A DNA stretch of 63,990 bases, counting the filler, from Rhizaria sp. SCN 62-66 (Eukaryota): assembly GCA_001724265.1 (NCBI GenBank). It is 11 parts of 11 records of this genome, joined end to end, with 100 filler letters (N's around TTAATTAATTAA, not from the genome) between each part and the next. Parts side by side here need not be neighbours in the genome. Positions count along the whole stretch, not along the records: positions 18,322 to 24,357 come from MEDY01000625.1; positions 24,458 to 30,216 come from MEDY01000626.1; positions 30,317 to 36,058 come from MEDY01000627.1; positions 36,159 to 41,783 come from MEDY01000630.1; positions 41,884 to 47,485 come from MEDY01000631.1; positions 47,586 to 53,118 come from MEDY01000632.1; positions 53,219 to 58,669 come from MEDY01000633.1; 4 more parts are not named here. One strand, written 5' to 3'. The notes under the pieces were generated by a model, which was not told the DNA's origin, searched no databases, and saw only the letters and a program-made list of their open reading frames with translations. Of this stretch, positions 18,724 to 58,500 are shown piece by piece; the first letter of the stretch is position 1; each line of letters starts with the position of its first letter. The position numbers were made by a program, and so were the translations under genes.

Positions 18724-21700
18724 TCAAATAGTGCCAGGCCCCACAACGATCGCAAAGCAAGAATTGGGGTCCACATTTGTGCATGTGAACGGATCCGTCG
18801 GCTGGAGATCCTCAGAAACAGCGTAGCAATAAGCAACTGTGACATCTCGGACCACCACATTTTCGTTATTTGCGTTTGTACTTTTAAACCCAGTGAAAGA
18901 GGTCATAAACTCACGCTTGAGTTGTTCCACACGCGTCGCGGCCTTAGAATAGTCAACTGTGTTCATTGTGCGCTTGACTTGCAAGAGAGTTACGCACAGG
19001 TCAACTTCGACTGAGTCGTTGCCCTTAGCGTTGCCCTTGGCGTTGCTCTTGGCGTTGCCCTTAGCGTTGCTCTTGGCGTTGCTCTTGACGTTGCCCTTAG
19101 CGTTGCCCTTAGCATTGCCCTTAGCATTGCCCTTGGCGTTGCCCTTGGCGTTGCCCTTGGCGTTGCCCTTGGCGTTGTCCTCGCCGTTGCCCGTAGCGTT
19201 GCCCGTAGCGTTGCCGTTGCCCTCACCGTTCTCTAGAACAGCGGTCTCACTCGCATCATTTGGGGACACAACAATCTCGGCGATGTGATACGCGTCAACA
19301 GCCTCGTGGCTAGGATCATTGGGATGGGCCATGATAAACTTACGGTCGCTGCGGAGAAGTTGAGAGACGAAGGGCTTGAGTAGTTGCACCACTTGAGCAG
19401 CAGATGCTTTCGGTGGGCAGTTTAAGGTCGACTGCTCAGTCTTCCGAATTAGCTCCAACTTGGGTCGGTCTACAGCCTGCCCATAGTTAATACGGGACCC
19501 GATGAAAGTGTACATTTGAAAGGGGCTGTCGTGTGGGAAGTTTAACACCAGTTGCTCGAAGAACTCGCCCATGGCACCGGGACTACAACGCCATATCATC
19601 TTCACGAGGTTGTCGTTAGCGGCACGAGCATCGTTATCCCTGAATTGCACACCCAGGGCGAACGCAGACACCGTCGACCGTGAGGTCAAACAAAACGTTG
19701 GATTCCTCAGGTAGGACTCAAGCTTGGCGTCGTCTTCGTACTTAAATGACGTGTTTAAGCCAAGACCGAATGTAGTGATGAGGCGGTGGGAGTTAAGACG
19801 AAACACAACCCCATCAAGTTTGATCTGAAGGGTGAACTCATCTCGGTGAGAGGAGATGGCGAGTTTTAATTCATTGAAGTTCTCGGCAGTCATATTCGCA
19901 ATAAACTTTGCGAGTTGTTCCTTGCTAAAAGGATGGGAAGGCGGATCGTGCGCGCACTGAACTCGGCCTTTGCAGGCGTTGTTAAACTTCCATATCAGAA
20001 GCCGCGGAGTGCCACAAACAGCAAGGTAATAGTGCTGCAACGCCTCATTAAAGCTTTTGAACGATGTGTCGCTAAAAAACGGTTCGAGAGGAAGTGTCTC
20101 GTTTCCGTCACGGAGCATGATCGGCAAGCCCTCTATGAGCTCCTCGATGCTCCACATGTCGGTGTGGTAGAAATGACAGTTAAGGTTCTTGCCGTTCTCA
20201 GACGCTGCCTCGTAGTTATTGGGATTCGGACTTGCAGCGACGACGTGAAACGAGCGATGGAGCCCAGGAAAAAAGAGAGAAGTTTGTGTGCCCCTCTCAG
20301 TTGGGTCGTACAGATAAAGTGTTTGGGGGTCGGTGATAGCGAGCTGAAATTCTAGTGATCCGATATTAACAACGCGTGCATCGCCACGACAGCCAAGCAC
20401 AAGTGCATACGACTGAAGACCGTGTTGGCAGACCACGTTCACGTTACCCATCTCCGCAGCGAGCAACACCAGTTTGTTCAGCGACGCCGTTTTGCCAGTG
20501 CCAGCAGGCCCCATCAAGACGATCGCGTTGCATCGAGAAGGCGGAGCTGTGTGAGACGTCTTAGCGGCAATGTTGAGCGAAAAATTGCGCATTACTAGCC
20601 TGTACGCGTCATCGTACTTTATCCGAGTCACGAGAGTGCGCCACTAACAGCTTTTTCCGGTGAAAAACCAGCATGCGTCATTGGGGATAGTGGTCATCCG
20701 CACATGCGAAAGCTCTTTAGTAAGCACGTGCTGAGCGACGTGCTCACTTTTGAGATACTTCCATAGCCTCGCTTGAGCCTGGAGAAACACGAGATTTTGG
20801 TCAGCGTCTGCCGCATCGGTAGCCTCAACTGTCTTAGCAGCTTTACCCTCCGTCGCTTCAGCTTTAAGAGTATTCGCAAGGTCGTCCTTGGCCGTCTTCA
20901 CATTAGCCTTGGCAGCCTAGAGCATATCCTGAGCCAGCTTCAACTTCTACACTGACCCGGCATTTTGCAGGAGGGTCGACTTCAGCTCGTTCACAAGCTA
21001 ATGATTACTGACAACGTCATCTTCAGCTTGGGCCACAATCACATGAGCCTGCGCAATCCGGACGTCAGAGGAAGCCTTGTTAAGTTTGTCTTCGGCCACC
21101 TTAACTTCAGCTCTAGCTACAGCTTGGTCAGAAGCCAGTTGCTCAACAGCTTCCTGAGCGAGATAGAGCTTGTCCTGGGCCAGCGCCTTGCGGAGCGCAG
21201 CCCTGTGCCACTCGTACTAGGCTGAGGCAACGGTGACCAGACTTTGTAGCCGTTTGTTTGTCAACTTAGTCTACGGGTTTGTCATCGCAGTCCGGCTCGC
21301 GCGGAGAGTCTTCTCTGCAAGGTCGAAGTTTGCCCTGGCGGACACCACGACTTCCGACTCGGGAGTGACTGGGTCAGGGCAGTGACGCTCTACAGTGGAG
21401 GTGATCTCCGGGCCAACGCCAGAGCGAGAGCGAGCGTGTGAGTCAGCAGCGCCAGCACAAGAGTCTGAGTCTGAGGCTTCAGGGTCAGAGTTCTGCAACG
21501 CCTTAAGATGACCGCCAGCGGTCGGATTAACGTTCGGCTTGGGGAGGTGGGACTGGCTGACAATGCTGTTGCGCTAGTTTGTGGAGTCGTCGTCGTCCTG
21601 TGGCGAAAACCTCGTGACACGCGGTGTATGGCTGTTGCGGCTGTTGTTGCCACTAGTAGAGTTGTTGACGTTGTCAGCAGATGAAGCATTCTTGTCACGT

Positions 21701-21960
21701 TGTTGGTCAGGCTCCCGCACTCGAGAAGCAGTGGACGGGAGCGAGATAATGTCTGAGGGCACTGTGAACACCATGCCTTGTGCAGTCGCCGCTGCGGTAA
21801 ACAAGTTGCCGTCAGCCAAATGCACGTCACCGGGCGCAGCGACAACGCTTGACGCGACAGCGCCGGACGTGACAGCGCTTAATGATGAGGAGGCAGAGCC
21901 GGTGGAGGTGCTCGCTTCTGGCTTCGCTGGGCGCGAACTGTGCAAGTTCATGCCGCTCAT
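18724..21960 (-). CDS. Crinkler/RHS-like protein (disordered N-terminus, coiled coil, P-loop NTPase, restriction-endonuclease-like domain); 1078 aa if its 7 in-frame TAG codons are sense
   Basis: Single frame from ATG 21960 to TGA 18724 with only TAG interruptions; IVLMGPAGTGKT, YLYD, AASPNPNNY, WSIEEL, GTPRLL, GEFFEQLV, AVDA and LLQVK match the CRN-type NTPase + REase layout. Confidence 0.75.
19017..19230 (-). repeat. Coding 12-bp minisatellite (AACGCCAAGGGC-like) encoding NAKG/NAKS/NATG
   Basis: Visible tandem gttgcccttggc / gttgcccttagc units on the + strand. Confidence 0.92.
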
Positions 21961-23007
21961 TGGTCACACGGTACACGTGAAGTTGAAAAGCAGAGGTTGG
22001 TAAGGCGATATAAAATGATATCGCAAGGGAACAGAGTAACAGCGAAGCAGGAGGACTGGGAGCTGGCGGGATTATGGGATTGTGAAGCTACGAGAGAGTT
22101 CGCGAAGCTGGTGGGAAAAAATGGTTTGGAAGAGGAAGGAACCCGTAAGTGAGAAAATGAAAGACATAGTCGGTTATGCGGTGAACACATTTCGGTATGG
22201 TAGTGAAAACAGATCTAATCCTGTGCGTGAAGTTGATTTACACATACTTCTCTTTCGCGAGTCGTAGCTGATGAAAAAAAATATTTTTTCGGAACCAACA
22301 GTCCTAAAAGCAAGGTACTATATTTTAGTGTGGGATTTCATCGCCATGGAGATCTCATTGAGTTGTCTTTATGGATCATTATAATTGTGCGGAATCGTTT
22401 TATCGGGAGTTATATTTGTACTATTTTGATTTAAACAACTTGAAATGTTTTGCTGTCCTCTCCAATGTCAGCATCGCTGCCGCCTCGCATGATGCCAAAG
22501 AAAACCTTGAATGAATGCAACTTCAGTCATGCAATCTTCAGCGCCAACAAAGTCGCTACTTTGGGCGGTTGCGGCAACAAGGTTTACGTCGAGCTTGATC
22601 CCCGCCTGAACGTCTTCGCCAACTGCTGGTGGGTCAAGGTCAGCACGGCAGCACTGCAGCGTGCTGGAACACCATTATGAAAGAGGAACGTGTCATTCTG
22701 CGATTAAGTCTTATCTCTGATAATATATTTCGGGCTCAAATATCGCGATTTTACGATTGGCAGCATCGGCGACCACATCGCGACTACCACAACAGGTCTC
22801 ACACGATGCGAATGATTCACTGTTTAGAAGGATTTCCTAATGTATGCAGCACATTTCAAGATTAAAACAATCGTTTAGTGACAGCTTAAAACGCAAAGTT
22901 AGATGTACTCCGGGTCGATTTTCTGTAACAAGTGCTATCTATTTTTGTTTATGTTTGTAGGTGTGTCGCTGCAGGTGTTATGAAAGCTGATTGAGGGGCA
23001 AATCTCG

Positions 23008-24264
23008 TTAAAGTTGTTGTTGCTGTGACCGAAGTTTGCGCTGGCGTAGCTGGCGGAGCCTGTCGTTCACCCCCAGCAGCAGCACAGACGTGTGCTGCAG
23101 CCGCAGCCGGAGCGAATAGTGGACCACATACACTGTCTTGCTGATAACATGATTCTCTGCATTGATGGGTGCGTTAACGCTGTCTGCCTATGCTGCCGTG
23201 TGTGCGTTGTTATTGGAGTGTTCAGATACGACAAGTTCGCGGGGACAAAAGATGGGTACACGCACACGGTCAACTGCAATCCTGCATTTGTTGGTCGCGT
23301 TTTCACTGCTCGTGCTCCTGTCGTCGTCGCAAATGCTGCTGAGCAGCCGCCTGCTGTTATTGTCGTCGCTGCTGGTGCTGCCAAAGTCGCCGCAGCTGTC
23401 CTGGTCATGGTTGTCGTTGTTGTTAGCATCACTGCCACTGCAGACAACATTAACTGCACCTCTGTGTGTGCCTTTATTAGCGCCAACGTGGCTGTTATTG
23501 CACGCACATGCGCCTGCAGTATCAGCTGCAATATCCACAGCCACGGCGCGTTCGCCGCTGTGGTCCGCAGTTGCCTTTGCATGATTGGGAATGTCATTGC
23601 TCTTATCGCCGCTAATGCTACTGTCACTGCCACTGTCACCTTTATTGCTGACAATATAGTTCGCTCGAGAGCTATAAATGTTGCCGTCGGTGTTACAAAT
23701 GCCGTTTAAACTGCTGTTCAGACTGCTGATGATGCTCTCAAGCTCGTCCGCGCCGCCCCACCCCGCCCGCTCACAGTCAATCACGGTCACCGTTGCAGTT
23801 GCAGCCGCAGCAGTCGCGGTAGAGTCAAGCTTCGGCATCGGCTGCTGTTGCTTCAGGTCTAATATGGACGGCAGTGGCACTAGATTGCGCACCCACGACA
23901 ACGCGAGCCCCACAATGCCGACATGCGCGTTGGCAGCAATCCTCGCGGTCGTCACCTCGCGCCCAACGCTCGGCGCCGCAGCCGCAACCGCGGGCGTAGT
24001 CACAGCTTCCGCATCAGCAGCAGCTGCATTGCCAGCGCCAGCGCGAGTGCCGGTGACGCGGGCGGCGGCGGCCGCGGCGGTGGCGGCGACGCGCGCGGCC
24101 GCGGCGCGGGCCTGGGTGCCAGCGCGGCCCGGGACGGTGCGGCGGCGGAATTAGCATTAACACTTGCACTCGCACTCGCACTCGCACTCACAATGGCCGT
24201 GGCAGTGGATGCGGATGTGGAGCTGATGAGCGAATTAGCTTTGTGTATATATTGCATGAAGAAC
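23008..24264 (-). pseudogene. Frameshifted fragment of a low-complexity host-type gene
   Basis: Ala/Ser/Asn-rich coding style changes frame near 24150-24100; the downstream frame passes a TAG at 23190-23188 and continues about 60 codons to TAA at 23010-23008. Confidence 0.45.
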
Positions 24265-24457
24265 TGAGGTATACGAGATATCATGCATGTGTGGCAAGGT
24301 ATATGGACTTCTCGCGTGCAATGTAGGAGGTGTGATCAAATAATCGCTCGAGAAGGCNNNNNNNNNNNNNNNNNNNNNNNNNNNNNNNNNNNNNNNNNNN
24401 NTTAATTAATTAANNNNNNNNNNNNNNNNNNNNNNNNNNNNNNNNNNNNNNNNNNNN

Positions 24458-25463
24458 GCTCTTCTGGATCCTGCCGCGCCACTTCAACCTCTTCTGTTTC
24501 CGTCACCAGGACGTCTTTGCGCGCATGCGCTCCAAGATGCGCTCGTGGCTCATCATTCTGTACGCGCTCTTCCTCCTCTACCCAATCGTGTCCAGCACGA
24601 TTCTCAACCACTACGTGTGCAAGACGATCCGCGACTCGGAGAACGCGTACTCGTTCCTGCTCGTCGACCTCTCGGTAACGTGCAAGACCGACACTTGGTG
24701 GCTCTTTGCCTATGTTGGCATTCCGCTCATCTTGCTCTACCCCATCGGTATCCCGGCCTTCTTCCTGTACTTGCTCTACACGCACCGCAAGCAGCTGCAC
24801 ATGAGCCAGGTCCAAGCCCAGTTCGGATTTCTCTACGCCGGTTACCGCGACGCCACGTGGTGGTGGGAGCTTGCCGATTCGTTCCACAAGCTCATCCAGA
24901 CCTCGATTCTTGCTTTCTTCCCGCTGCTTGTCCAGCTGCCCTTCGGCATGGGCGTCGCGATCGTGTATCTCATGGCCATCCTGCTCTTCAACCCGTACCT
25001 GCGCAAGGAAGACGACGCGCTCGCGATGCTGTGCCAGAACTTGATCTTCCTGCTTATGCTCGCCGGCTACTTCTTCCAGATTGAGGGCAACGTCAAGCTC
25101 TCGACATCCGAGGACGTGGGCATGACGCTGTGCTTGCTGTTCGCCGCGGGCGTGTTTTTTGCCGCGTTCCTCTACTTTATCGGCCGCGCGCTGGTGCTCA
25201 TGATCAAGGAGCTGCGCGACAAATACTGCCCCAACAAGCGCGCGCCCAAGGACCTCGGTGCGCTGCAGACCGCGGACACCAACACCGACGCCGACAACAT
25301 GGTTGTTGAGGAGATCATATCTTCGGACGACGATGATGATGACGGCGACAAGGCCGACGAGACGCAGGACGACGACGATGATGAGAGCCTTGGCGCGAGC
25401 GACACGCTCAGCTCCGCGTCTTCAAGCTCTGGCTCCGAGTCCGGCTCGGGCTCGGACGACTAA
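24458..25463 (+). CDS. C-terminal part of a multi-pass membrane protein (TRP_C-like/protist 7TM family) with acidic tail; 5' truncated
   Basis: About seven hydrophobic segments; DLSVTCKTDTWW, YPIGIP, FGFLYAGY, WWWELAD..K, NPYL; stop TAA. Confidence 0.8.
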
Positions 25464-27932: not shown

Positions 27933-29656
27933 ATGAACCCTTCGTACAACCCGTACGGTGGCGGCGCGCCGATGGCCCCCCACGGCCAGGTTGCCGCCCA
28001 GCCCAGCCAGTACAACTACGGCGCCCCGCCCCCGGGCCACGGCCACGGCCACGGTCATGGCCACGGCCACCCCCAGGGTCCTCCTCCTGGCGGCTACCCG
28101 GGTCAGTACAACCAGCCTGCGGCAGCGAACGCGTTCGTGAACTCGACGTCGTCCGAGGCCTTCGGCGCCCTCGCCATGGGCTACCCGAACCACCCGTGGG
28201 AGTGCTCGGCCTGTCTCTTCGTCAACATGAACCCCGACCGCATGGACTGCGAGCGCTGCGACTCGACGCGCCCGCCGCTCAACGTCGGCGAGGCTAACTT
28301 CGCCATGCGCAACCAGCAGTACTACTGGGGCCGCTCCGGCTGGGAGAAGGAGGGAGGCGAGAACGCCGACGCCGCCGCGGGCGCTGCCGCCGCGGGCACC
28401 GAGCCTGCCGCTGCGGGCGCTGCCGCAGCCGCCGAGGGCGGCAGCGGCGCCGTGGTGTCCCCCGACGCGACCGCGGGCGCGGCTGCCGCGGCCTCTGGCT
28501 CGAACGCGGCTGCGCACTTGGCCGCGCAGCCCTCGGAGCGCGGCCCCGGCATGCGCGGCCCTCCTCCCGCGGGCTCCTCGCGCTGGGACCCCAACGCGGG
28601 CGGCGCCAAGGACTCGGCCGACACGTCCGGCGTGCTCTGTCTCTCGCAGGACATGTTCCAGATGCTCCTCGCGGCCGGTCTCGGCGGGTACCAGATCTTC
28701 AAAATCGTGATGGCGACAATGCTGTCCGTCTTCGTTCCCCAGAGCTGCCCCGACATGGTCGGCACCATCGAGCTACCGACCTCGCACGACTGCACCATCA
28801 CGGAGAACTTCACCGACCTGACTAACTTTAACACCGGTGTGCTCGTGTTCAATTTCGTTACGCTCGGCTTTGCTCTCATCCACCAGTTCGCCGTCTTTGC
28901 GCGCGAGAAGAAGCTCATCCAGGTACGCACACAAATATCGTTCAAATTCTGTTTATGTGAAACATGTTTTTTTCGTAAACGCCATGTAGTTTCGTATCGC
29001 CAGCTACTATCTGATCTCCTGTCACAATGCCCACATCTCTGCCTCTTGATATCTAAACTCTAAACTTGATGTTCTTTTCTTTTTCCCACCAGGTGCTCGA
29101 CGAGGATCCGTCCGTGACGAACGACTACCTAGTGCGCGAAGACCGCAAGGGCCGCAAGGTGATCGAGATGTACCCGCACGTCGCCCGCAACATTAACCGC
29201 AGCAACGGCTGGACGCTGATCACGTCCACCATGATCCTGGCCTGCTTCTTCGTCAACGCCATCATCTCTGCCATCCTGGTGTTCCGCGACTACTACGCCG
29301 GCTTCCGTACCGTCACCACTTTCCTGACGAACGTGTTCCTGATGATCCAGGTCTTCTTCAACCACTGGAACCTGTCGCGCGTCGGCTGGAAGTCGGGCGT
29401 TGCATACTCCTTCTTCAAGTCTGACCCCTCCGTGTACAACAACATCGACCGCTCCCTCCGCTCGGACCCCGCGTATTTCGTGCCGCGCAAGCCTGCTGCC
29501 GGCGGAGAGGGCGAGGGCAACGGCCCGCGCCGCAACGGCTCCGGCCGCCGCGAGAACGGCGAGGGCGTCGAGATGACCGACGCGGCCGCCGCGTCCCCCA
29601 CCTCGGCCAACGCGGCCCCCGTCAAGGCTACGCTCGTCACCGCGCCCCCCGCGTAA
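27933..29656 (+). CDS. RanBP2-type zinc finger + multi-pass membrane domain protein; exons 27933-28922 and 29093-29656, about 517 aa
   Basis: WECSACLFVNMNPDRMDCERC finger; Pro/Gly/Tyr/Gln-rich N-terminus; about four TM segments; phase-0 GTACG...CCAG intron; stop TAA. Confidence 0.85.
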
Positions 29657-32736: not shown

Positions 32737-35130
32737 TCATACTTGTGTGGCAAGCCTTGCTGGGTTTGCAGCAATTGGGGGCGTTGCGGAGCGGCTGCGC
32801 TGCGCAGTGCTAAATGATACTGGGCCAAATCCCTGCGCCGACGGCGGCCGTGGGCTCATGACCGGTGTGTTTGCCGCTGGCAGCACCGAGCTCGGGCCCA
32901 GAGCAGCAGCTGTGTGTCCAGTCTGGCTGCGAGGGGGCACAGGCAAGAACGTCCCAACGCAAGAACTGCTTTCGTCAGCTCCAGTCGGGCTCGCCGTGAT
33001 GCTGCGCGCCCGCACAGGCGCGCCTGTCACTGGCACAGTACGCGCAGGCTGTGCCACAGTGCTGCCCGGAGCGCCCAGTTCCGCACGCGCTGCGCTCGTG
33101 TTTGCAGCCGACGGCGCGCCGCAGCCGGCGCGGCGCGGCGCCGGCTGCGGCGGTGACCGCGGCGGCATCAATGACGAGCGCAACAATAACACCGGCGAGA
33201 GGGGCGAGATGGGTGCGAGCAAACCGCCGGCGGGCAGCTGCGGCTGCGGCTGCACCGGCGGCTGCGGCAAGGCAGCGGCGCGCCCAGCGGCGTCCGCACT
33301 GGCGCCACAGCCGGGCGTACTGGTGGTTGCGCGGGCGACTGCAAACGGCCTCGGGCGCGCAGTCTCGGGGCCGAGCGCGACGGCAGCCGCTGCGCCGCTG
33401 AGAGTCCCGTCGGCAAAGCTCGCGGCGGGAGCAAGGGGACTTGTGCGGAGACCAAGACTTGGGCTTGCGCTTGCGCTAGCGGCACCGGCAACGGAGGCGC
33501 TTGAGCTTGGGCTCCGGCTGGCGTAGAGGCTTCGCGCAGTCATAAGACTGCCGGCTCCAAGGAGACCCACGGTGCTGGCAGCCACGCTGGCGCTCGGGCT
33601 TCCGGCCGCGTTCCGAACAGGACCGCCAACGCAGAGTCTGAGATCAGCACCGTCGGCCTTCACACTGCCGGTTGACGCATACACAGGACTTGGACCCGCC
33701 GCACCGCTGCTATTACTGCCGCTTCTGCTCGGGACAATGCTCGGAAGCGTAGTCGGCGCCAGGCGCGCACGCAGAAAGCCAGCGTTTAAATCCGTTGATC
33801 TCTGCAAAGCTGTGCTACGCATTGAATGTGAAGAGTCAGTCAGTGTCCTATTTGTGGCGGTTTCCGCTCCTTCCGGTTGTGTTCCACCGAGGATAGATGT
33901 CAAGCGAACCCCGACACTGTTGGTTATGCTCCGGGCAGCCACAGGCGCGGCCGCGGCGGCTTTGGGCCCGAACTGCGGGGCCGCAACCGGAACGCCAAGG
34001 GCCAGCGCCGCGGTGCGCAGACCGAGCATCCGCTGCGCATATACCGCTTCGCGCTGCGCCTCGCGCTGCGCCGCGCCGTGCGTCGCGCCGCTCGCCACGC
34101 TCGGCGCCGCAGCGTTAGTGTTGACCAATGTCCGCGCTGCCGTCGCAACTGCGCCCGCAGCGGCGCCAGTGCGCGGCGAGAGAGGCGCTGCTGACGCAAC
34201 ATGCCGTGATCCGCTCTTGGCGGGCAGCGCAGTCGCCGTCACAGCCACCGCTCCTGAGGTGGGTGACACAGATGAGGAATGCAACCGAGCGACATTCGCG
34301 GCCACCGCCGTCGCAACAGTATCTTTATGCACAGAGACAGAGTCAGTCGTTACCAGAGGCCGGGACGGCATCGCGCGCGTGTCAGTTGCTCCAGACGCCA
34401 CCTTGGTGTCGTTCATGCGTTGGGCAGGTGATTCAGATTGAAAGCTTTCCAACTTCATCGCATTAACCTTTGCAGCTGCGGCGATGACATCGGCAGCGGC
34501 GGTAGCTGCAGCCGTCCTATCAACAGCAATATTAACAGCAACGGGAGTGATCAAATAACGCTCATCGCAACCAGTAGTCATCGTGTCAGTCAGCTGCGAC
34601 AGGCGGCGGAACACAAACTCGGATGCGCAGTCGCTCTGGCAGTAGCGTGGGTCAGGAATTGAGTCGGAGCCGGAGTCTGAGTCTGAGCCTGAGTTTTGAT
34701 CGCGAGAGCGAGAGCGATTACTCAGCGGGTGGAGGAACGATGCGAGGTAGGCCGACAGCTTGGGAAGCCCCGAAAGAAGCTGGACATGCACGGCTGCAAA
34801 GAGGCGAAAGCGAGCAAGCTGAAACAGCGCCTCTGCAGCAGTTGCGCGTTCAATGTCTTCAAAGCTGAGTAAGGATGGGAGGATTAAGCCGACAACATCG
34901 TGCGCGCCCAAAGCGTCGTTGATGCTGCTGTCGAGCTAAGCTGTGTCAGAGTTTTTAGTATCGATTGACAAGCGCACAGAAGCCATCAGTCGAAGAGCCG
35001 GCACAAAGCATACCAGGGGACTGCCTGGTGTGGCTGATGGGTAGCAAGTCGCAAGTAGACTCGTCACTGAGGCGAGATTCTGCAGCTGCTACTCGGCACC
35101 CGATGCCGCCCTCGCATTGTGCGGCATCAT
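32737..35130 (-). CDS. Large Ala/Ser/Pro-rich protein with helical N-terminus; two in-frame TAG codons
   Basis: The 724-aa ORF frame extends upstream through TAG 34938-34936 and TAG 35091-35089 to ATG 35130, just after a CAG acceptor at 35135; stop TGA. Confidence 0.6.
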
Positions 35131-36158: not shown

Positions 36159-39100
36159 CGCGGCCGCGGCGGCCTCGGCGGGCGTCGGACACAGCGCGTC
36201 GCCCGCGCGCCCCGGCACCGCGGGCGGCGCGGGCAGCGGCGGGCGCCCCGAGCGGTCGTAGGCCGTGATCGAGTACGTGCCCTTGGAGCTCGCCAGCGCG
36301 TACCCGTCCAGCAGGCTGTCCACCAGCGCGTTGCCAGTGGTCTCGGCGGCGGCGGCCGCGGCGGCGGCGGCTGCGGCGGCCGCAGCGGCGGCGGCGGCGG
36401 CGTCGGCGTCCGAGTCCGAGTCGGTCGAGTCCTCCCAGTGGCCCTGCGCGCGGCGGCGGGCGCGGCGGCGGCGGCGCGCGGCGGTGGCGGCGGCGACAGC
36501 CTCGCGGCGCTCCGCTTCCTTGGCCTGCGCGAGCGCGACGGCGGCGACGGCGCGGCGACGGCGCGGAGACAGCGACTGCCCGGCCATGGGCGCCGCCGCG
36601 AGCACGGCCGGGATGGAGAAGGCCTGCGAGCGCCACACCGCCGTCTCCCGGGTGAGCGAGCCGGCCGTGCTCAGCGGTACGGAGCAGCGTGCCCAGCCGC
36701 CCTCGCCCGCGGCGTGCGTGGCGTGGAGCTCCGCGCGCGCCGCCGAGGCGGGATGCAGGCGGCGCGTGGTCGGGTACAGCAGCTGCATATCCCCGCTGTC
36801 GCGCCACGCGCGCGCGCGCTGCGTCAGGTAGTATCCCGCGTCGTTGTCTTCGCCGTCGCCGCTGTCGGCGCCGGTATGGTGGCCGTCGGTGCCGTCATCG
36901 CGGCCCTGCTCGGCGCCGCCGCGAAGGCCAGCCGCAGTCGTGTGCGGTCTCCGCAATTGCGACTGTGAACGTTGCTGCTGCTGCTGCTGTAGCTGCTGCT
37001 GTTGAGATGCGCCGGGCTTGCCTCTGCCGTGCGCCGCGCCGCTCTGCGCCGCGCGCGCGCCGGGCAGGAACACGGGCGCGTGCAGCACGCGCAGCCGCGG
37101 GTCGCGCCCGGCAGCCACGGCGGCGGCGGTGTTGGCGTCGGCGGCCGCGGCGGCCTCGGCGGCGGCCAGCGCCGCGGCAGCCGCGGCGGGCGTCATCGCC
37201 CCGCGCGCGGCGTAGACCGCCATGGCCAGCGGCGCGGCGGCGATCGTCGGGGGCAGATTCGCCGTGTTGGCCGCGGACGCCGCCGCGTTCGCGGGGTTGG
37301 TCGCGGTCGCGCTGCTCGGCTGGGGCACGGGGCGGAAGCGGGAGCGGGCGAACTTGGGCACCGCGGCAGCACCGGGGGACTGGTGCGACGGCGGGTGCGG
37401 CTGCGGCGCTGGCCGCTGCGTCTGCGCACGCGCGATGCCCCCCTGCTGTTGCTGCTGCTGCTGCTGTTGCTATGCTGCTGTGAATCTGTCCCCGCCAGTG
37501 CGCGCCGACTGCGCCCCCAACTCCGCCGTGCGCGGCGCACTGCGCGGCGCACTCTGCAGCTGCGCGCTCTGCGGTGCAGTGCCGGTGCGCGGTGCAGTGC
37601 GCGTGTAAGGGTCCTCGAGCGCGGTGTCAGTGTAAGCCAGCACATGCAACGGCAGAGCGGCGCGCGACGTCATGTGGTTGTTATACCGCGCCGCGAGCGG
37701 CACCGCACCCGCCAGCAGCGGCCTCGGAGCCGCCGCTGCGGACGCGCGCGGGGGCGGCAGCGCGGCGCGCGCGGCGAGCGTGATCGCGTAGGCGCCGAAG
37801 TTTCCGCCCGCGGAGAGCGAGAAGGCTGAAGGCATCACTTCAGGCAGCGCGGCGGCCGCGGCGGCAGCGGCCGAGGTCGCCGACAGCGGCCTGTCGCGGC
37901 CCGCGCGCGCGTCCTCAGCCGCAACCGCGTCGATGGCGGCGGCAGCGGCAGCGGCAGCCTCGGCGTCGGCGGCGGCGGCGGCGCGGGCCTCTGCGCGCGC
38001 CTCGGCGCGGGCGTCTGCGCGGTCGGCGCGGCGGCGCGCGCGGGCCTCGGCGGCGGCGGCGGCAGAGGCTTCGTCCGAGTACTCATCCTCACTCGCGCTG
38101 CTGCAGCTGCTGCTCGCCGTGTCTTCGCCATCGTGGAACAGGGCGGCGGCCGCGGCGTCGCGGGGGTTCACGTCGTCGTCCTCCTCGGCGGGCAGCCCCG
38201 CGGCGACAGAGAAATCGTGCGCGGCCTCGCCAGCGTCGTCGGCGTAGTCGTCTTCGTACTCCGCGTCCGCCGTAGGGTGGCCGCTTTGACCACCGTGCGC
38301 CTGGTGCGGCTGCGACTGCGATTCCTTCGACTGCGGCTGCGGCTGTTGTTGCTGCTGTTGTTGTTGTTGCCGTTGCTGCTGTTTGTTGCTGTTGATGTTG
38401 CTCTCGGCGACAGCGCTGCGCGCGGGCGCCGTAGGGAGCAGGCAGCCGGGCGCGAGCGCCCTGTAGGCGCTGAGCTCGACCCGGCGCAACAGAGACACCG
38501 ACGGCGGCAGCGGCTGCGGGAACAACGCATCCTTCTGCAGCGGCAGCAGCGACGCCGGGTGCCGCGGCGCGCTCGTCCCCGCCGCCAGCGCGGCCGCGCT
38601 CTCAGCGGCTTCGGCCTCGTCGTCCTCCTCAGCGTCAGCGTCGTCAGCCTCGGCGCCCTCGGCGTCGGCAGCGTCGGCAGCGCCGATGTAATCGTCTTCG
38701 TAGACGGCTTCGTAGTCGTCGTCGTCGTCGTCGTTTTGGCCGTCGTTGGCGGCGGCGCACTTGTTGTGGCCTTCATACTCGTCGCCATGTTGCTGATGTT
38801 GCTGCCGCTGTTGCTGCTGTTGCCTTTGCTTTAGCGACTGTGGCTGCGTCTGGGGCCGCGAGCCGCTCGCCTGCGTCTGAGGCCTCGTCTTGGTCCCAGC
38901 AGCCCCGCTAGCCCCGCTGTCATTGCTGCGGTGCTTGCGGCCCGTGTTGAGCTCATGCACGCGCGACAGCACCGCGAGCGTCTCGCCCACCGCCCCTGCG
39001 CGTGCGGCGGCGGCGGCGGCCGACTGCGGCGACGACGGCGCCAGCAGCAGGCCCCCGTGCGCCCCGTCGCTCTGCTCCTCACCACCGTGGGTCGCTGCAG

Positions 39101-41523: not shown

Positions 41524-41783
41524 ATGTCTACTAAGAAGGTTCGTCTCTTAAAATCATCTTGTACTATTTCACACTCGCCTGCATCCGCGTTTATACCGTC
41601 TTTAGCCGCACGTGCGCTCACCCTCTTATTTGCCCCCCTGTGCTGGCCCATCTTGCCTTTGTTTCGCTGCTTTACGCTCCTTACAGACCCAGAAGAAGAG
41701 CTCTGATAACATCAACTCCAAGATTGCCCTCGTCTCCAAGTCCGGCAAGTACACCCTCGGCTACAAGACCACCCTCAAGACTC
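41524..41783 (+). CDS. RPL30: 60S ribosomal protein eL30, 3' truncated; exons 41524-41538 and 41687-41783
   Basis: MSTKK|TQKKSSDNINSKIALVSKSGKYTLGYKTTLKT; GT...CAG intron. Confidence 0.93.
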
Positions 41784-42065
41784 NNNNNNNNNNNNNNNNN
41801 NNNNNNNNNNNNNNNNNNNNNNNNNNNTTAATTAATTAANNNNNNNNNNNNNNNNNNNNNNNNNNNNNNNNNNNNNNNNNNNNGAGTAGTAACAAAAAAA
41901 TGTTGCAGCAGTGCACTCGTGAATGTACGGTGCACGCAAAGTGTGCACCCGCCGCATTTTGCAAACTTGGCAGCACTAGCAAAATTTTTAGCTTCTCTGC
42001 GCATTTTACTCGTATTTTTTTTGTGTAGCACCACACTTGCCGTATAGCTTCGCTACGTCCAGGCC

Positions 42066-44470: not shown

Positions 44471-44506
44471 TTTTGCACTATTTACCTATTATTACTATAT
44501 ATAGTA
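44471..44506 (-). promoter_or_regulatory. AT-rich motif with palindrome TACTATATATAGTA; inverted second copy at 46787-46822
   Basis: Minus-strand TACTATATATAGTAATAATAGGTAAATAGTGCAAAA versus plus-strand TACTATATATAGTAAAAATAGGTAGTAATAGCAAAA. Confidence 0.55.
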
Positions 44507-44587
44507 TATAATGTACAAATATAGTAAAGATATAGGGAATAAGTGCAAGTTTATGTACAGACGACTATATTACAAAGGGAAAAGCAT

Positions 44588-46648
44588 CTAAAAAAAGTAG
44601 GCATCGTTCGCCGAGTAGCGCTGCGTAGTGCGCGGCTGCTGTGCCAGCACGTCGAACATGTTACCGGGCAACTTGCTGATCTGGCCGTGGAATAAGTTGT
44701 TGTAGAAGAGCTCTACTTTGGTATCGACCATAATGGCATTTTCGTTGAAGGTGCGCAGCTTGAGGCCTTCCAAATTGCGAACGCGCGATAAGGCTACGTA
44801 TGCTTGGCCCGCGGCAAACACGCCGTCCAGCGACACTTCCACGCTATCCAATGTCATGCCCTGACTGCGGTGAATGGTCAGTGCCCAGGCCAGCGCCAAG
44901 GGAATCTGCGTGTAGCTGGCAATGATAAAGCCCTTGTCGTCTTCAATGTTCCACGTGTGCGGGTTGATGATGCGTTGATTGCCGTTGGCAAACTTGACGA
45001 TGGGATAGCGCGTCTCGGGTGCAAAATCGACTACTACGCCTTTGCTGCCATTGACGAGTCCACCTTTGGTGTCGAGATTGGTGAGCAGCACTACTTGTGC
45101 ACCGACGCGTAGCAACAAGCAGCGATCGCAGGGTTCGCGATCCGCCGTAAACATGCCGTCGCTGCCCGTAGCGAGCGCTTCAAATTTGCGAATAGGCGTG
45201 TCGAGCGTGTACAGCTTTTGCAGATTGTATTCGCGCACGTTGCTCTTGGTGGGGTACAGCACGGTCGGTTCAATGCTAATGCCGTCTATGCTGCGCGGCG
45301 TAAACACGTTGATGCGCTGCGACAGCATGCGAATGTCGGCACGATTCATGTAACCGATGCGTAAGCGCGACAGCAGATCGGACAGCTCGCAGTCGCCGCT
45401 TTGGCGGTAATTGTGCTTCAAGATGAATACGCGCAGCTGCAGCATGTTCCACAGACTGGATTCGAAAAAATAGCGCACCTGTTTGTTCTTGCGCGGACTG
45501 CCCGTGAGCGGCACGCACGCATTGTTGAACAGGTCAAATGGTGACAGATTGCTGGGCTGCGCAGGTGCAGCGGGTGCGTCGAACGTGGGAAAAGTAGGTT
45601 GCTGTGCAGCTGCACTGTTGTTGTTGTTGTTGGGCACGGGCGGCAATTGATAAAAGTCGCCTACCAGCACAATCTGCACGCCACCGAACGGTTGGTTGCA
45701 GCGGCGCACCTGTTGTGCAATTTGATCCAACTTTTCCATGTAGTCGCTATCGAGCATGGAAGCCTCGTCGATGATCAAGGTGTCCACGTCTACCCAGCGC
45801 TTGCGCGAATACATGTTCATGGTCTTGACGTAGTGCTCTACGGTGTTGTTGCCAGTACCAATGCCTGCAAAGCTGTGCAGCGTCATGCCCTTGACGAGCA
45901 CGGCTGCAGATCCAGTGGTGGCCGTAACCTGCACGTGCTTGCCGGCGACCAACAGTGCAGTCTTGCACAAGAGCAGCGCGTAGCTTTTGCCGACACCCGC
46001 ACCGCCGGTGAAAAACACGTTTTCGCCGCGCAGCACTGCCTCGAGGCCAGCCAACTGCTCAGCGTTGGCATTTTCGCGCAGCGTCGTCAATTCTTCCTGC
46101 GTGTAGCGATTGTACTGGCTGGGCGCCACTGCCACTTGTCGTATCTTGGTGGTAGGTGTAGCTTGCTTGATTACGTAGTCGTTGTCGCGCACTACATTGA
46201 TTGTGGTACTGTGCTGCTCGCTACTAGCTTGATTGGGGCGCTTCTCGCGGATGGCATTGATGATCATGTTGGTCATGTCTGCTGCAAAGCCATTCATGGC
46301 TACGGCACGATTAACGCCAGGAAAATTGATGGGCACTGCCGGCTGTTGTTGCACTTGCTGCTGCTGCTGCTGCTGCTGCTGTTGTTGCTGTACCTCGCTC
46401 TTGAGCCGCTTGATAGCAGGTCTGTCGGGCGCTTGTAGCACGTCGCACGTACGTTTGCGACTTGTGCCGTCACCGTGTGCCTGCAACGCTTCTTGTTTGA
46501 TGACCACGCTGTGCTGCGGATCGGGCTTGATGGGAATAACCATGTTGAAGGGTTCGGGCACCAAAATAGGGGGTTCTTCTACGTGCGCGTTGCACACGTT
46601 GTGCACGCCGTGCAAATACAAGGTAGCGGTGCTGCCAGAAGTAGCCAT
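44588..46648 (-). CDS. PIF1: PIF1-family SF1B DNA helicase
   Basis: FFTGGAGVGKS, TATTGSAA, TLHSFAGIG, LIIDEASM, FGGVQIVLVGDFYQLPPV, GAQVVLLTNL, LVNGSKGVV, QIPLALAWALTIHRSQGMTLD, GQAYVALSRV; intronless; stop TAG. Confidence 0.95.
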   Translation of the reverse strand: MATSGSTATLYLHGVHNVCNAHVEEPPILVPEPFNMVIPIKPDPQHSVVIKQEALQAHGDGTSRKRTCDVLQAPDRPAIKRLKSEVQQQQQQQQQQQQVQQQPAVPINFPGVNRAVAMNGFAADMTNMIINAIREKRPNQASSEQHSTTINVVRDNDYVIKQATPTTKIRQVAVAPSQYNRYTQEELTTLRENANAEQLAGLEAVLRGENVFFTGGAGVGKSYALLLCKTALLVAGKHVQVTATTGSAAVLVKGMTLHSFAGIGTGNNTVEHYVKTMNMYSRKRWVDVDTLIIDEASMLDSDYMEKLDQIAQQVRRCNQPFGGVQIVLVGDFYQLPPVPNNNNNSAAAQQPTFPTFDAPAAPAQPSNLSPFDLFNNACVPLTGSPRKNKQVRYFFESSLWNMLQLRVFILKHNYRQSGDCELSDLLSRLRIGYMNRADIRMLSQRINVFTPRSIDGISIEPTVLYPTKSNVREYNLQKLYTLDTPIRKFEALATGSDGMFTADREPCDRCLLLRVGAQVVLLTNLDTKGGLVNGSKGVVVDFAPETRYPIVKFANGNQRIINPHTWNIEDDKGFIIASYTQIPLALAWALTIHRSQGMTLDSVEVSLDGVFAAGQAYVALSRVRNLEGLKLRTFNENAIMVDTKVELFYNNLFHGQISKLPGNMFDVLAQQPRTTQRYSANDAYFF

Positions 46649-46958
46649 GGGCAAAGTACGTTGCGTGGTAGTCGGTGTGCAGGAAATGTTGTAATGAATG
46701 CTGCACGCATTGCATTTTTACCTTTTGACTGGCAGCCCTGAAACTTATTTCCACATTGTTACATCTTTACTATATATGGTTATTATTACTATATATAGTA
46801 AAAATAGGTAGTAATAGCAAAAAGGTCGCACAACCTTGTACACGTACAGCCATACACGTGCAGATATACCCACGGCCACGTGGCGTGCACCGCCCGAAAT
46901 TTATTCATGTCTTTCAGGGCTATCGTGCAACAAGGCTGCAATTGCGCACGCAGCGCAC

Positions 46959-47485: not shown

Positions 47486-47586
47486 NNNNNNNNNNNNNNN
47501 NNNNNNNNNNNNNNNNNNNNNNNNNNNNNTTAATTAATTAANNNNNNNNNNNNNNNNNNNNNNNNNNNNNNNNNNNNNNNNNNNNC

Positions 47587-47970
<384 letters not shown>

Positions 47971-53218: not shown

Positions 53219-54592
53219 CGTGCTGCCGGGGTCGTAATCGTCCTCGTCGCTAGGGTTCGGCGCCAGCGCCGGCAGTACGCCCGCCGGCAGCGGCACGGGG
53301 GTCGAGAAGTGTGGCACAAAGCCCTTGCCGCCGAGGGGGGGGCGCCACGGCAGCGCGCTGGCCTCGTTGATGGCGGCGGCAGCGACCTGGCTCTCGACGT
53401 CTTTGCCGAGGAATGGCAGCAGCGCCGCGTCCGGGTGGCGCAGGCGGCCGGTTAAATAGCGGCGGTGCGCGCAGTTGTCATAGGCCCAAGAGGAGAGCGC
53501 AGCGCCAGAGGAGCGGGCGGCTGAGGGGGCCAATATTGAAGCGGCAGGGGCCGAGGGGGCTGAGCTAAGCGGAGGCTGCAGTCGGAGTGCGGTCGGAAGT
53601 GGCTTTTTGCTTGTGCTAGCATGTGCATGAGGCGGACTGTTCGCTTCATTGACATTCTCGATCGAGATAACGACTTCTTGAGTGGTCGCAACGTCAGAAA
53701 CGACACGCGCAGCACATGTCGCGTTAGCGGTGCTGTTGACAGGAGCGGGATTAGTTCTCTGTGGCCCGTCTTCCTCCTCTTCCTCTTCACTGCTCACAAA
53801 TACGCCATCTTTGTGCACACTAGCGCATGCAGCGGCCCCCGGCGCAGCGCCCGTCGAGTCGTCATTGTGACTGCGGGCCTAAGCCTGAGCCTGAGCTTGA
53901 GCAGTAGCAGAAGCAGAAGCAGAAGCAGCTGGCGAGGGGCACGCTACGAGCGCAGCCAGTGCGTCTGCTGCGGCTGAATGGAACACTTGCGCAACAGTGC
54001 AACGCTTCAGGTACTGCATGCCGGGGGCCTCCCACGTAGTGGCGGGAGCGTTGCCGACGAGCGGAGCAGGATGAAGCAGCGGGCCGGTGGCGATCGTGCC
54101 CAACGCGCGGCGCAGCACGAGGTCGGTCAGCGCGGCGTTGGCTACCAAGACCGGAGACGCGGCCATCGCGGGGAAACGCGGGCCGGGGGCGAAGGCGCCG
54201 CGGGGGCGCGCGGCGGCCGTTGCGGCTTCGACCGTGGCGGCCGAGTAGGGCGCGAGGTCCGACGGCAGCGGCAAATGCTGCAGTGTGGAAGCGTGCAACG
54301 CAGATGTCGGGTCGTCTGAGAGAAGGACTGAGGAAAGTGATGTGTTTGTGGTGTACAGTGCACGCTCTGAGTTGTCATGAGTGGCGTAGTCATTATTATT
54401 GTGGTTGTTACGGTGTGTGCTGTCGCTGGTGCTGTTGTTGTCAGTCAGAGCGTGCTGAGGTTGATGTTGCCCGGAAGCGGAATTGGGCTCACAGTACTGT
54501 TTGTACTCTGGGTTTTGCTGCTGCTGCTGCGGCTGTGAGACAGTTATGATCGCGTCCCATCCCAAGAGGAGCTCGTACTCAGCGGTGGACAT
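53219..54592 (-). CDS. Low-complexity hypothetical protein, 3' truncated; one in-frame TAG
   Basis: ORFs 53879-54592 and 53171-53818 share a frame and are joined across TAG 53881-53879 inside an Ala-Gln repeat. Confidence 0.65.
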
Positions 54593-55568: not shown

Positions 55569-58500
55569 TCACTCAGGAATTCGGCGAGCCAGGGACTCAA
55601 AGTCAACCTGTAAGTGCCTCCTGGAGTTGGCCGAGTGGCCGCCACCGTAGAACTCGTCGGGGCAGCAGCACTCGTCGTCGAGCGTGTCGTTGAACACATA
55701 CACGAGCCCGATCAGCATGGGCACCATGTAGATGAAGAGCGGGATGTTGGCCACCATGAGGGACGGCGCCCAGAGCGGGTCTGCGGGGTTCCACAGCCGG
55801 TTGACGTAGAGCGCGAGCATTGCGATCCAGATCACAAAAGGCGCGAAGCCCAGTGAAATTACGATAGCTGTGAACATGCCCTCTTTGTACCGAAACCAAA
55901 TAACGGCGATAAACATCGCGAGGGCCGTGGCGAGGAACGGGGAAAAAGCGGCAAGGCCGGTGATGTTAAAACCTTCAAGCTTGGCGTTGACAAGAGCGAA
56001 GAAGCAGAGGAACTGGCCCCAAACGAACCACGCCATGCATACGCGAATGCCAACCCGGTCGAAAAGCTTGTCACAGCAGTCTTCGTCGGAATCGTCGAAG
56101 GAGACGCAGGGCGGTAGACACTGCATTGCGAGAAAGGCATAGGCGGGAATAAAGCCGATGGTGTACGAGACAGAGATAAGGTCTGTGCAGATTAGCACAA
56201 CCATGATGATTTGCGCAAAGATCGCGAACGCAGATGAAAACATCCAGAATGAGCCGCAACAGCTTTCTGAGTAGACGTCGGCAAGAACGTGGAGGAATTT
56301 GGCGACGAGACCGTGCGGACTGGGAAGCTGGAAGACCCACTTGCGAGAACGGCGTGGCGCGAGCGCGCCCACAGTGTCTGCGCTCACAGTGGGGGCGTCG
56401 CAGCAGTAGAGCCGGAACCCAATCTACGCCACAGGTGAAAGAAAGAACAGCAGCAAGGAATTAAACAGATGATGAGTATGAACAAGCGTATGAACAGTGT
56501 GAAAAAAGTATGGCAAAGATGTTTAATTTCGACAATGGTTTTACATTGAAACGTACCTGACTCTCTGCGGCGGCCGCGACATGCTCTAAAGAGACTTCTT
56601 CAGTTGTAGTGTCGCTGTCCGGCCTCTCCGAACAACAGTCTAGCTCTGCGACAATGGACAGCGCAAAAGACAGCGTGATCGCGATCAAGAACACAACGGC
56701 GGGCCACATCTCGTAGATGGAATAGCTTCCGCCGACGTGTTTGCGGTAGATGAGCAGAATGGGGAACGCGATCAGCAGCAGCAAGATTGCGATGTGTATA
56801 ATGTGCGTCTGAAAGCACTTGTACAACCGTTGGACGAAGTTGCACTCGTACAGAGAGTCCTGGATTTCGCGCTTGGCCGCGTTGTCGGTCCAGTCGAAGA
56901 GCGCTTGCAGCAACATCTCCGGCTGCCGGGGCCGCTGCAGCAGCGCCAGCGGGTGGACGACTGACGGCACGGAGAGTGCATCCAAGCCGATAAAAACGCC
57001 GAACATGGGTGCTGCGGGCCAGAAAGACACGGCGGGACCGAATACGTCGGCGTCGGATGGCACATCGCTGCCCTTCGTATTGCTACCGTCGTTCTTGGTT
57101 GGCGCACGTGCATTCGCACTTGCACTGTCCGAACTGCTGTTGCTGCTGCTGTTGTTGCTGTTGTTGCAGCCCGCGAAAGGCTGGCGCAGCGGTTTCCCGG
57201 CCATCGGCACCGACCCCAGCGCAATACGCGGCTGCGTCGACATCAGGAACGGCTCCAGCGGCGACGGTGCGTAAGTGCGGGCGCCGCCGCGCGTGGTCGC
57301 AGCGGACAGTGCGGAGCCCGGCGGGGCCGGGACTGTGGCCGGCAACAAAGCGTTATGGGGCACATTGATCGACAGACAGGTTGCTACGAAGAGACCGTTG
57401 AGAAAGGCGGAGGCCGCAGCGTTGACGGCCTCAGCGCCCGCCTCGCCGGCGCTGGCGTTCAGATTCGTCGTGCTGTTGACGCTCGTCGTGTCCATGTTCG
57501 GCTTGGGGGCCGCGTCGACGGCGACGTATTCGACGATGAATGGCAGGCCGACAGCGTGCGTCGCGGCCCGGGACTGCGCGCCAGCACCCGCGCGCAAGCC
57601 TGGGGCGGCGGCGGCAGCAGCGTCAGCGTCGCGCGCTTGAGACCCGGACGCGACGGGGAGCGGGGGGGCATCGCACTGGAAGTGGAGCGGCGGCGGCGGC
57701 GGGGACGGCTCAGTCTCAAGCAACGCCGCTTGCGACTGCAACTGCGACAGCATGAGCTTCGAGAGCACGACGCTCGACGGCGACGACGGCACCAGCATAG
57801 CGCCGTGGTCGCTCGTGCTCGTGCTCGCACTTGCAGCAGCGCTGCCGCGAGCGCTGTTGGCGCCAGCAACGTCTGCAGACACGACGTACACCTGACTCCG
57901 CGTGCCGTCATTACCGGCGCTGGTCAGAGTCTTTGTGTGACCATTGCTGTCCTTGCTGCTTCCCTTGATGTTGCTGACATGCGTCGCCGCGGCGCGCTGG
58001 GCATCCGCTCGCGCCTGCTCGGCAGCCAGCACCGTGCCGACCACCGGCGCGGGCCCCGCCGGCCCCACAGCGCTGGCGGGCAGCACCGAGCCCACCGCGG
58101 CCATGGCGCCGACGCCGGGGAGCGTCTCAATCGGGCACCGCTGCAGCCACGTGTGCGACGTCGCGTGCAACTCCGGCATGGTCTACTCGCCCATACTTTC
58201 AAGCGAGCGCGCGGTGGCGCGCGACGCGCGGCCCGCCCAAACCGGGTGCGCCGAGAGGTCCGCGCGGTGCAGAGTCTTCAGCTCGAGCAGCGCGAGGCGC
58301 TCCTCGGCGGTGAAGAGCGTCGAGAAGTGGAACAGCGCGGTGTCCACCGGCTGCAAGGCAGCAGCGACGCCGTATTGCGCTGTCGTTGCAGTTGTGCCGA
58401 TGTTGTTGTTGTTGTTCTCGTTCTTGTTAAAAGTCGCAGAGGCATGGATCGGGATGGACTGGTCAGCCTGGTGGCTGTGACTAGGACTGTGGTTCGCAGA

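Follow-up and report, generated by a model that had tools for sequence, protein, structure and literature searches.

Changes of meaning that affect UAG but not UAA have been reported for few nuclear lineages: the fornicate Iotanema spirale, in which UAG stands for glutamine, the rhizarian exLh (Sainouroidea), in which it stands for leucine (PMC5304391), and some phyllopharyngean ciliates, which use it for leucine or, in Hartmannula sinica as well as Trochilia petrani, for glutamine (PMC11687900). Sense UAG is a minor codon in Iotanema, making up ~8% of its Gln codons, and in exLh it occupies conserved Leu columns (82 of 86 hyperconserved positions), with strongly uneven use among gene groups (PMC5304391). 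Each new case bears on the question of a mechanistic coupling between UAA and UAG and on stop-codon capture. We analyzed a stretch of 63,990 bases (the window) from the assembly deposited as Rhizaria sp. SCN 62-66 (GCA_001724265.1), for which a sequence-only reading had proposed that UAG encodes glutamine and that UAA and UGA remain stops; the background on uncoupled UAG changes on which it drew agrees with both papers. We put at roughly 0.7 the probability that UAG is a sense codon, and UAA and UGA are the stops, in nuclear genes of this uncultured eukaryote of wastewater and bioreactors, which is possibly a rhizarian.

The window comprises 11 contigs of 5.2-6.2 kb each, arranged in descending order of length (6227 to 5221 bases) and joined by 44 N, TTAATTAATTAA and another 44 N at 6228-6327 and nine further places. 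Because it is a set of separate contigs and not a single molecule, a frame crossing a spacer is meaningless. Per-contig G+C ranges from 0.50 to 0.67. The gene content is eukaryotic, with Pfam families or genes that include a nitrilase-family protein, PITP, the APE endonuclease and reverse transcriptase (RT) of a LINE-like (long interspersed nuclear element) retrotransposon, the SUMO-E1 subunit UBA2, a TRP-like protein, a PIF1-like helicase and a DUF7869 protein.

All 13 TAG codons listed by the sequence-only reading are present on the minus strand, each in a frame that continues without TAA or TGA, and they fall into six frames on contigs 4, 6, 7 and 10, in agreement with the six genes and four contigs claimed. 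Seven belong to a frame of 1079 codons on contig 4 (18724-21963, previously described as a "CRN-like" gene), which has an ATG at codon 2, ends in TGA and specifies a protein with a coiled coil and a P-loop NTPase. All seven TAGs of this NTPase frame lie within its first 440 codons, at codons 130 (21574-21576), 231 (21271-21273), 249 (21217-21219), 322 (20998-21000), 339 (20947-20949), 349 (20917-20919) and 440 (20644-20646). Contig 4 also holds a 380-codon frame (23008-24150, TAA stop) with one TAG, at codon 321 (23188-23190). The 806-codon frame of contig 6 (32737-35157, TGA stop) has two, at 35089-35091 and 34936-34938, both near its 5' end. A single TAG is found in each of the three remaining frames: at 37470-37472 in a 1261-codon frame of contig 7 (36159-39941), which has a third-position G+C content (GC3) of 0.87 and runs off the contig end; at 53879-53881 in a 468-codon frame of contig 10 (53219-54622), which likewise runs off the contig end; and at 58183-58185 (codon 162) in a 735-codon frame of the same contig (56461-58668, TAA stop). 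All six frames are on the minus strand. TAGs of the NTPase frame are referred to below by codon number or, where DNA is compared, by their first base, as are the others.

Coding potential around these sites was assessed with a codon-usage score trained on TAG-free genes alone, namely UBA2, open reading frame 2 (ORF2) of the LINE, PITP, and the cores of the PIF1-like and DUF7869 genes, which lie on contigs 1, 2, 3, 8 and 11. The same frame scores as coding on both flanks of all seven NTPase TAGs and of TAG 23190. In a whole-segment test, same-frame scores upstream and downstream were 240 (823 codons) and 133 (437 codons) for TAG 37472, 46 and 49 for TAG 53881, 56 and 159 for TAG 58185 (GC3 0.90 and 0.96, respectively), and 90 and 13 for TAG 23190; at these four sites the other frames score negative. 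The claim that the frame continues past each TAG is therefore borne out, with coding signal on both sides, at 11 of 13 sites; once the contig 6 pair is dropped, the supported sites are distributed over five genes on contigs 4, 7 and 10.

Every stop codon in six frames of all contigs was also scanned, a stop being passed when, on either side of it over as many as 120 codons, no other frame of the six scored higher than its own and the score was at least 0.10 per codon. TAG passed in 9 of 126 cases, TAA in none of 100 and TGA in none of 472. All nine were already on the earlier list: the seven NTPase TAGs, TAG 23190 and TAG 58185. Inside coding frames, then, this unbiased scan finds TAG and neither TAA nor TGA. 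A looser first scan, with 50-codon flanks, admitted antisense frames and passed 14 TAG, 4 TAA and 6 TGA; in a very strict version the sole pass was TAG 58185, which passes every version. Some TAGs outside the list were set aside: one at 1539, in a minus-strand frame at 1525-2472, is irrelevant, being antisense to the nitrilase-family gene, and those at 42045, 44397, 27918, 51793 and 56426 are uninformative, since they lie either upstream of the first ATG or within 5' regions that are themselves uncertain. The gain in ORF length per stop read through was dropped as a measure, since it is confounded by G+C content (TGA gave the largest gain).

The distribution of stops among frames is most telling over codons 1-440 of the NTPase gene. 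Counted in frame 0 and then in the other two frames, TAG occurs 7, 2 and 2 times, TAA 0, 1 and 11 times, and TGA 0, 10 and 20 times. The reading frame is closed to TAA and TGA and, if anything, enriched in TAG. By our own hypergeometric arithmetic on these counts, the probability that all seven in-frame stops are TAG is ~2e-6. We conclude that the in-frame TAG pattern is real and not a product of chance.

The TAGs of contig 4, to which comparison with other sequencing runs was confined, are reproduced in independent material. Part or all of this contig was found in 13 runs from 8 studies, and sampled words from it are present in bioreactor, wastewater, microbial fuel cell and activated sludge runs. 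Contigs from two of these sources, X1 and X2, which differ in study and in year, span all eight TAGs with no differences at the TAG sites. TAG 21576 is identical in both, X1 record 7, which bridges it, having one differing letter elsewhere; TAG 21273 is bridged without differences by X1 record 6 and X2 record 15; TAG 21219 is covered in both; and TAG 23190 is identical in X1 record 8 and X2 record 16. Over 18682-23415, three contigs from JGI metagenomes (L001-L003) match the window at 99.9-100% identity; the one mismatch is in L001, which covers no TAG. At the RNA level, record 29 of a poly(A) metatranscriptome assembly from activated sludge, X8, extends over 20873-21026 and bridges TAGs 20919 and 20949 with no differences; X8 covers TAGs 21000 and 21576 as well, within 26-27 letters of contig ends. 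There were no X8 contigs over 21958-23371, and this was not used as evidence. Since identical TAGs recur in independent DNA and RNA contigs, there is no sign of sequencing error or RNA editing in these assembled contigs of low depth. Two X2 joints suggest in-frame length variants of the gene (one shorter by 186 bases in net terms, the other passing over 57 bases with undefined letters in between); these joints were placed at 90% likeness with short sides, may belong to other copies, and were not used as evidence.

We asked what else could place TAG within a coding frame. One intron has been verified in the window, at 1556-1707 (152 bases; GT, a T-rich tract and a final TAG), in the NIT1-like nitrilase-family gene on the plus strand, whose exons, 1118-1555 and 1708-2244, match positions 1-118 and 139-255 of the CN_hydrolase profile. 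As this case illustrates, the final TAG of an intron is able to mimic an in-frame TAG within a stop-to-stop frame. Retained introns were nevertheless rejected for the supported TAGs, which lack the polypyrimidine tract of the NIT1 intron. A paralogue, P0131, aligns without gaps across TAGs 322, 339 and 349 (50% identity, E 1e-24), and the alignment of a more distant relative, P0166, starts at residue 423, 17 residues ahead of TAG 440, and reaches the P-loop domain (E 7e-14). Because both align across TAGs, the TAGs occupy codon positions and not introns.

Decay of a pseudogene fits poorly as well: mixed stops and frameshifts would be expected, whereas the NTPase frame has seven TAG, no TAA, no TGA and no frameshift in 1079 codons. 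In a neutral-decay model that takes its codons from the gene itself and its transition/transversion ratio from the copies of the gene, TAG accounts for 0.48 of new stops, and stops for 2.5% of mutations. Seven of seven TAG then has p ~0.006, and ~280 substitutions would be implied with the frame unbroken. Nor do the data fit C-to-T mutation of the kind caused by repeat-induced point mutation (RIP). RIP indices of the TAG-rich part are 1.0 and, for (CpA+TpG)/(ApC+GpT), 1.23, and CAA outnumbers CAG (22 versus 17), yet no TAA has appeared. The family resembles a target of RIP-type or random decay in being multi-copy, with point changes and premature stops; it differs in the absence of CpA depletion, of TAA and of frameshifts, and in that transversions are common among variants.

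As for the amino acid, three repeat contexts favor glutamine, all of them quoted exactly in the sequence-only reading: TAG 37472 is followed by nine CAA/CAG codons, TAG 53881 stands where a (GCT-CAR)n repeat calls for Gln (GCT-CAA-GCT-CAG-GCT-CAG-GCT-TAG), and TAG 35091 stands beside CAG-CTG-CAG (GAG-TAG-CAG-CTG-CAG), at a site without coding support. In addition, TAG is one transition from CAG. Provided that TAG is a sense codon, we judge glutamine its probable meaning, though with considerable reserve. At TAG-aligned columns, which are few and non-conserved, no Leu was found, and the presence of D and K at coiled-coil positions argues against leucine; it does not separate Gln from Glu, Lys or Ser.

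TAG is concentrated in fast-evolving or low-complexity parts of genes and is absent from the conserved genes of the window. A codon that re-enters genes by mutation should start at unconstrained positions, which implies that the change would be recent. The data establish the presence of TAG within coding frames, the lack of TAA and TGA there, and the reality of these letters in DNA and RNA contigs; translation of TAG, and with it the amino acid, the tRNA/eRF1 mechanism and the recency of the change, is our inference. On the model of the UAG-only cases in the literature, a cytoplasmic tRNA with anticodon CUA would decode UAG, and eRF1 would no longer recognize UAG efficiently. Glutamine would be the most plausible meaning, and TAG would have re-entered coding sequences by mutation fairly recently. 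The 11 contigs contain no eRF1 gene and no tRNA other than two tRNA-Cys (GCA) genes, besides which Rfam gave nothing.

Several observations weigh against a sense UAG, or against glutamine as its meaning. One set concerns gene ends. Among 14 frames examined at the 3' end, the first stop is TAA in six, TGA in six and TAG in two. The sequence-only reading had named genes that end in TAA or TGA, and nine of these ends were confirmed: TAA for PITP, UBA2 and the frames at 25463, 48485 and, in addition to the 14, 29057-29656, and TGA for NIT1, the NTPase and the frames at 32737 and 55569. An "ABCC" gene on its list could not be located (there is no ABC-transporter family among 25 Pfam-scanned frames), and two genes with TAG as first stop were missing from it. 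One is the PIF1-like helicase (44570-46717, minus strand), where TAG at 44588-44590 precedes a TAA by five codons; the other is the DUF7869 gene, whose 3' end (59759-59803, minus strand) has TAG at 59803, 59779 and 59764 and then TGA, 15 codons on. Around the terminal TAG both sequences turn A+T-rich or simple, and the DUF7869 end is an (AGT)n-like stretch that yields TAG in several frames. Three readings of these ends are possible: read-through to the back-up stop, residual or context-dependent termination, or the standard code. Under the standard code, about a fifth of genes would be expected to have TAG as first stop, and two or fewer TAG ends among 14 have p ~0.28 by our own arithmetic if a quarter of stops are TAG. 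Being compatible with the standard code, stop usage alone does not discriminate. The PIF1-like gene has a run of Gln codons near its N terminus and is flanked by inverted stretches of 64-66 bases with 83% identity (44471-44534 and 46760-46822), and it possibly belongs to a mobile element.

The residues found opposite TAG raise further doubt. P0131 has D, K and T at codons 322, 339 and 349, a near-identical copy has Ser at codon 440, and Gln is found at none. TAG 440 lies between two blocks conserved in distant NTPase relatives, which have D or E/N/N/I/I/N at this position, Ile being the residue in 2 of 6. In the alignments made, none of the TAGs coincides with a conserved column, so a caveat entered in the sequence-only reading holds, and the assignment of glutamine rests on the three repeat contexts; of its UAG=Gln code, the part that stands is that TAG, unlike TAA and TGA, occurs inside coding frames. 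Use of the codon is very uneven, even within the NTPase gene, where TAG makes up 7 of the 26 Gln-type codons up to codon 440 and 0 of the 20 in the 639 codons beyond, and it is absent from UBA2, LINE ORF2, PITP and, upstream of their 3' ends, the PIF1-like and DUF7869 genes. The segments upstream of the contig 6 TAGs 35091 and 34938 score -1.1 and -1.4, respectively; coding signal is found downstream only at 34938, and both segments flanking 35091 are near zero (-1.1 and -1.4), so these two TAGs may lie in a 5' untranslated region or another non-coding stretch. The RNA support consists of assembled contigs with a depth of 2-4, and DNA carry-over into the RNA library is possible.

The NTPase family itself invites caution. 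It is multi-copy, with 246 family contigs mapped in X2, 122 of them at 90-95% likeness. The 35 listed variants in the ORF comprise 10 synonymous and 25 non-synonymous changes (119 further differences are unlisted). The family is thus fast-evolving and almost neutral, and non-functional copies certainly exist. Three X2 variants cover 20639-20674: the reference, one that differs at 20648, 20656 and 20673 and keeps the TAG, and one with TCG. The TCG variant (20645 T>G, a transversion), seen in X2 and X5, is the sole polymorphism observed at any TAG. As a copy that differs nearby keeps TAG 440, this codon has persisted through some divergence.

The standard code could account for such data if the TAG-bearing frames were pseudogenes, dead repeat copies or nonsense alleles, and the pattern a matter of chance and of selection by the reader. 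A multi-copy family close to neutrality (10 versus 25 variants), a close copy with TCG at codon 440, conserved genes free of TAG and two genes ending at TAG all speak for this. We nonetheless consider it improbable, given seven TAGs with no TAA, TGA or frameshift in 1079 codons (decay p ~0.006), enrichment of TAG in frame 0 (7 versus 2 and 2) with TAA and TGA excluded, four further genes on contigs 4, 7 and 10 with a single TAG and strong same-frame signal on both sides, a scan that passes 0 of 572 TAA and TGA codons, the lack of a RIP signature, and a TAG 440 common to at least two diverged X2 copies. More improbable still is a mixed bin or separate replicon, by which contigs 4, 7 and 10 would derive from an organism or element other than the source of the conserved-gene contigs and the code change would not extend to the window as a whole. 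TAG-free and TAG-bearing genes do lie on different contigs, G+C varies from 0.50 to 0.67 between contigs, and contig 4 has a 92-base direct terminal repeat. The TAG-free contig 2, however, has the same kind of terminal repeat (99 bases), a codon model trained exclusively on TAG-free genes of contigs 1, 2, 3, 8 and 11 identifies the correct frame on contigs 4, 7 and 10, a paralogous NTPase locus shares a 175-base repeat (78%) with contig 3 in its flank, and none of 2 candidate stretches from viral contigs proved to be a relative.

If UAG is sense, its meaning could still depend on context, so that it is read inside genes and terminates near some 3' ends, as in a reassignment that is still incomplete or in a code of the type known from karyorelict ciliates and Condylostoma; codes in which a codon is both stop and sense are described in bioRxiv 10.1101/2022.04.12.488043. 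Well-supported internal TAGs combined with TAG as first stop at the expected C terminus of the PIF1-like and DUF7869 proteins, with TAA or TGA close behind, would suit this option, which we regard as quite unlikely: the cases are only two, both are transposon-type genes that may be decayed, newly arrived or extended by 5 and 15 codons, and one of them ends in an (AGT)n-like repeat that gives TAG in several frames. A sense UAG that means leucine, or else Glu, Lys or Ser, is unlikely to a lesser degree. D, K, T and Ser, and never Gln, are aligned to TAG; Leu, Glu, Lys and Ser each have a codon one step from TAG; and the UBA2 tree (below) points to Rhizaria, the group of the UAG=Leu case (PMC5304391). 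Three TAGs occupy Gln-repeat slots, though; D and K at aligned coiled-coil positions disfavor Leu on BLOSUM-type reasoning; and glutamine is the commonest outcome of published UAG-only and UAR changes, according to PMC5304391. We therefore retain UAG as a sense codon, with UAA and UGA as stops. A fuller scenario, in which a wastewater rhizarian has reassigned UAG alone to glutamine in a young change that would be the second code change known in Rhizaria, with a meaning unlike the Leu of exLh, is tentative and, taken as a whole, somewhat doubtful. In such a young change the PIF1-like and DUF7869 genes would once have ended in TAG and would now extend by a few codons to the back-up TAA or TGA.

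The identity of the organism was approached through UBA2. Its protein has no close relative, the best matches being just 32-34% identical. In a careful maximum-likelihood tree of 41 sequences chosen among 120 listed matches (a single gene with an arbitrary root), the window UBA2 lies inside a 14-sequence split with support 100/99, together with Norrisiella, Paulinella and unnamed environmental sequences. Norrisiella and Paulinella, the sole named rhizarians in the tree, are both in this split, and the 27 sequences on the opposite side are all named except one environmental row (env27). The tree flags composition bias on the window's row. The sequence hints that the organism groups with Rhizaria; because this comes from one gene with a composition-bias flag and an arbitrary root, it is a lead rather than a placement.

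Searches with the NTPase protein gave little beyond its own family. Its match to the nSTAND_NTPase5 profile is weak (21.3 bits against a cut-off of 34). Word-based protein searches returned nothing, or just the window's own 85-residue fragment, and most of the 150 matches from a full HMMER search reflect a low-complexity GNAK repeat, of the (G/S)NAK type, at residues ~917-989 (window 19000-19230); eight HMMER matches over the TAG-bearing part or the adjoining NTPase domain were aligned. A metagenome scan yielded only three fragments of this very gene (99.9-100% identical) plus a C-terminal paralogue that has no TAG, and a scan of viral contigs yielded no NTPase relative. The flank of a paralogous NTPase locus from a JGI metagenome, L004 (1060-1234), and contig 3 (12514-12680) have a 175-base shared stretch with 78% identity, which suggests a dispersed repeat of the same genome. 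Standard-code gene callers fragment the proteins of this organism, and four of the resulting fragments occur in public protein sets (P0127, P0128, P0131 and P0145); P0145, a predicted fragment, ends exactly before the column of TAG 349. Annotation of such bins hence needs the right code.

Further observations concern contig structure and neighboring frames. A direct repeat of 92 bases with 100% identity forms the two ends of contig 4 (18322-18413 and 24266-24357), as in a circle or tandem array, and no contig mapped on contig 4 from other runs extends past its ends; the region 23978-24357 is G+C-rich and of low complexity, with a depth above 1000 in X1 and X2. Contig 2 has a 99-base direct terminal repeat (6328-6426 and 12146-12244), which may reflect an assembly circle or a tandem array, and carries the LINE-like element (6800-10609; endonuclease, reverse transcriptase and zf-RVT) and a 499-codon ORF. 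Contig 1 has a 99-base inverted terminal repeat (1-99 and 6129-6227), possibly an assembly fold-back, and for this reason the tRNA-Cys (GCA) gene appears at both of its ends in opposite orientations. On contig 10, the frame at 56461-58668 ends in transmembrane-like sequence, and hydrophobic segments of a similar kind follow in the next frame, 55569-56522; the two frames may be exons of a single gene, which would make the TAA at 56461 intronic. At the end of contig 7, a plus-strand frame at 41606-41783 reads ...KIALVSKSGKYTLGYKTTLKT, which may resemble the N terminus of ribosomal protein L30e.

Full-text literature searches returned no paper on a code of this kind in a wastewater or cercozoan eukaryote. 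If both the rhizarian placement and a meaning other than Leu hold, the window would be evidence of an independent origin of a UAG-only change. A further, non-ciliate case in a common engineered habitat would allow easy resampling and could be tracked by metatranscriptomics and metaproteomics; should the change be recent, intermediate stages would be visible, giving a snapshot of early stop-codon capture.

Among described systems, Iotanema, Hartmannula and Trochilia resemble the window in that UAG alone occurs in frame and UAA and UGA end genes, UAA sharing first place among terminators with UGA (6 and 6 of 14). In Iotanema sense UAG is, moreover, minor, as it is rare and uneven here. The differences are that Gln is deduced here from repeat context and not from a conserved Gln column, that the organism, a G+C-rich inhabitant of wastewater, sides with Rhizaria in a single-gene tree and is neither a fornicate nor a ciliate, and that two of its genes have TAG as first stop. 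In Condylostoma, karyorelict ciliates and Blastocrithidia, too, a stop codon occurs within genes as well as at their ends; their codes affect two or three stops, whereas TAA and TGA are never in frame here (0 of 572), and terminal TAG is limited to two genes, both transposon-type. With exLh (PMC5304391) the window has in common uneven UAG use and, probably, a UAG-only change with UAA and UGA as sole terminators, and the two may share a supergroup. They differ in habitat, an insect there as opposed to bioreactor and wastewater runs here, and in the residues that mark UAG: conserved Leu columns in exLh, and D, K, T and Ser together with Gln repeats in the window.

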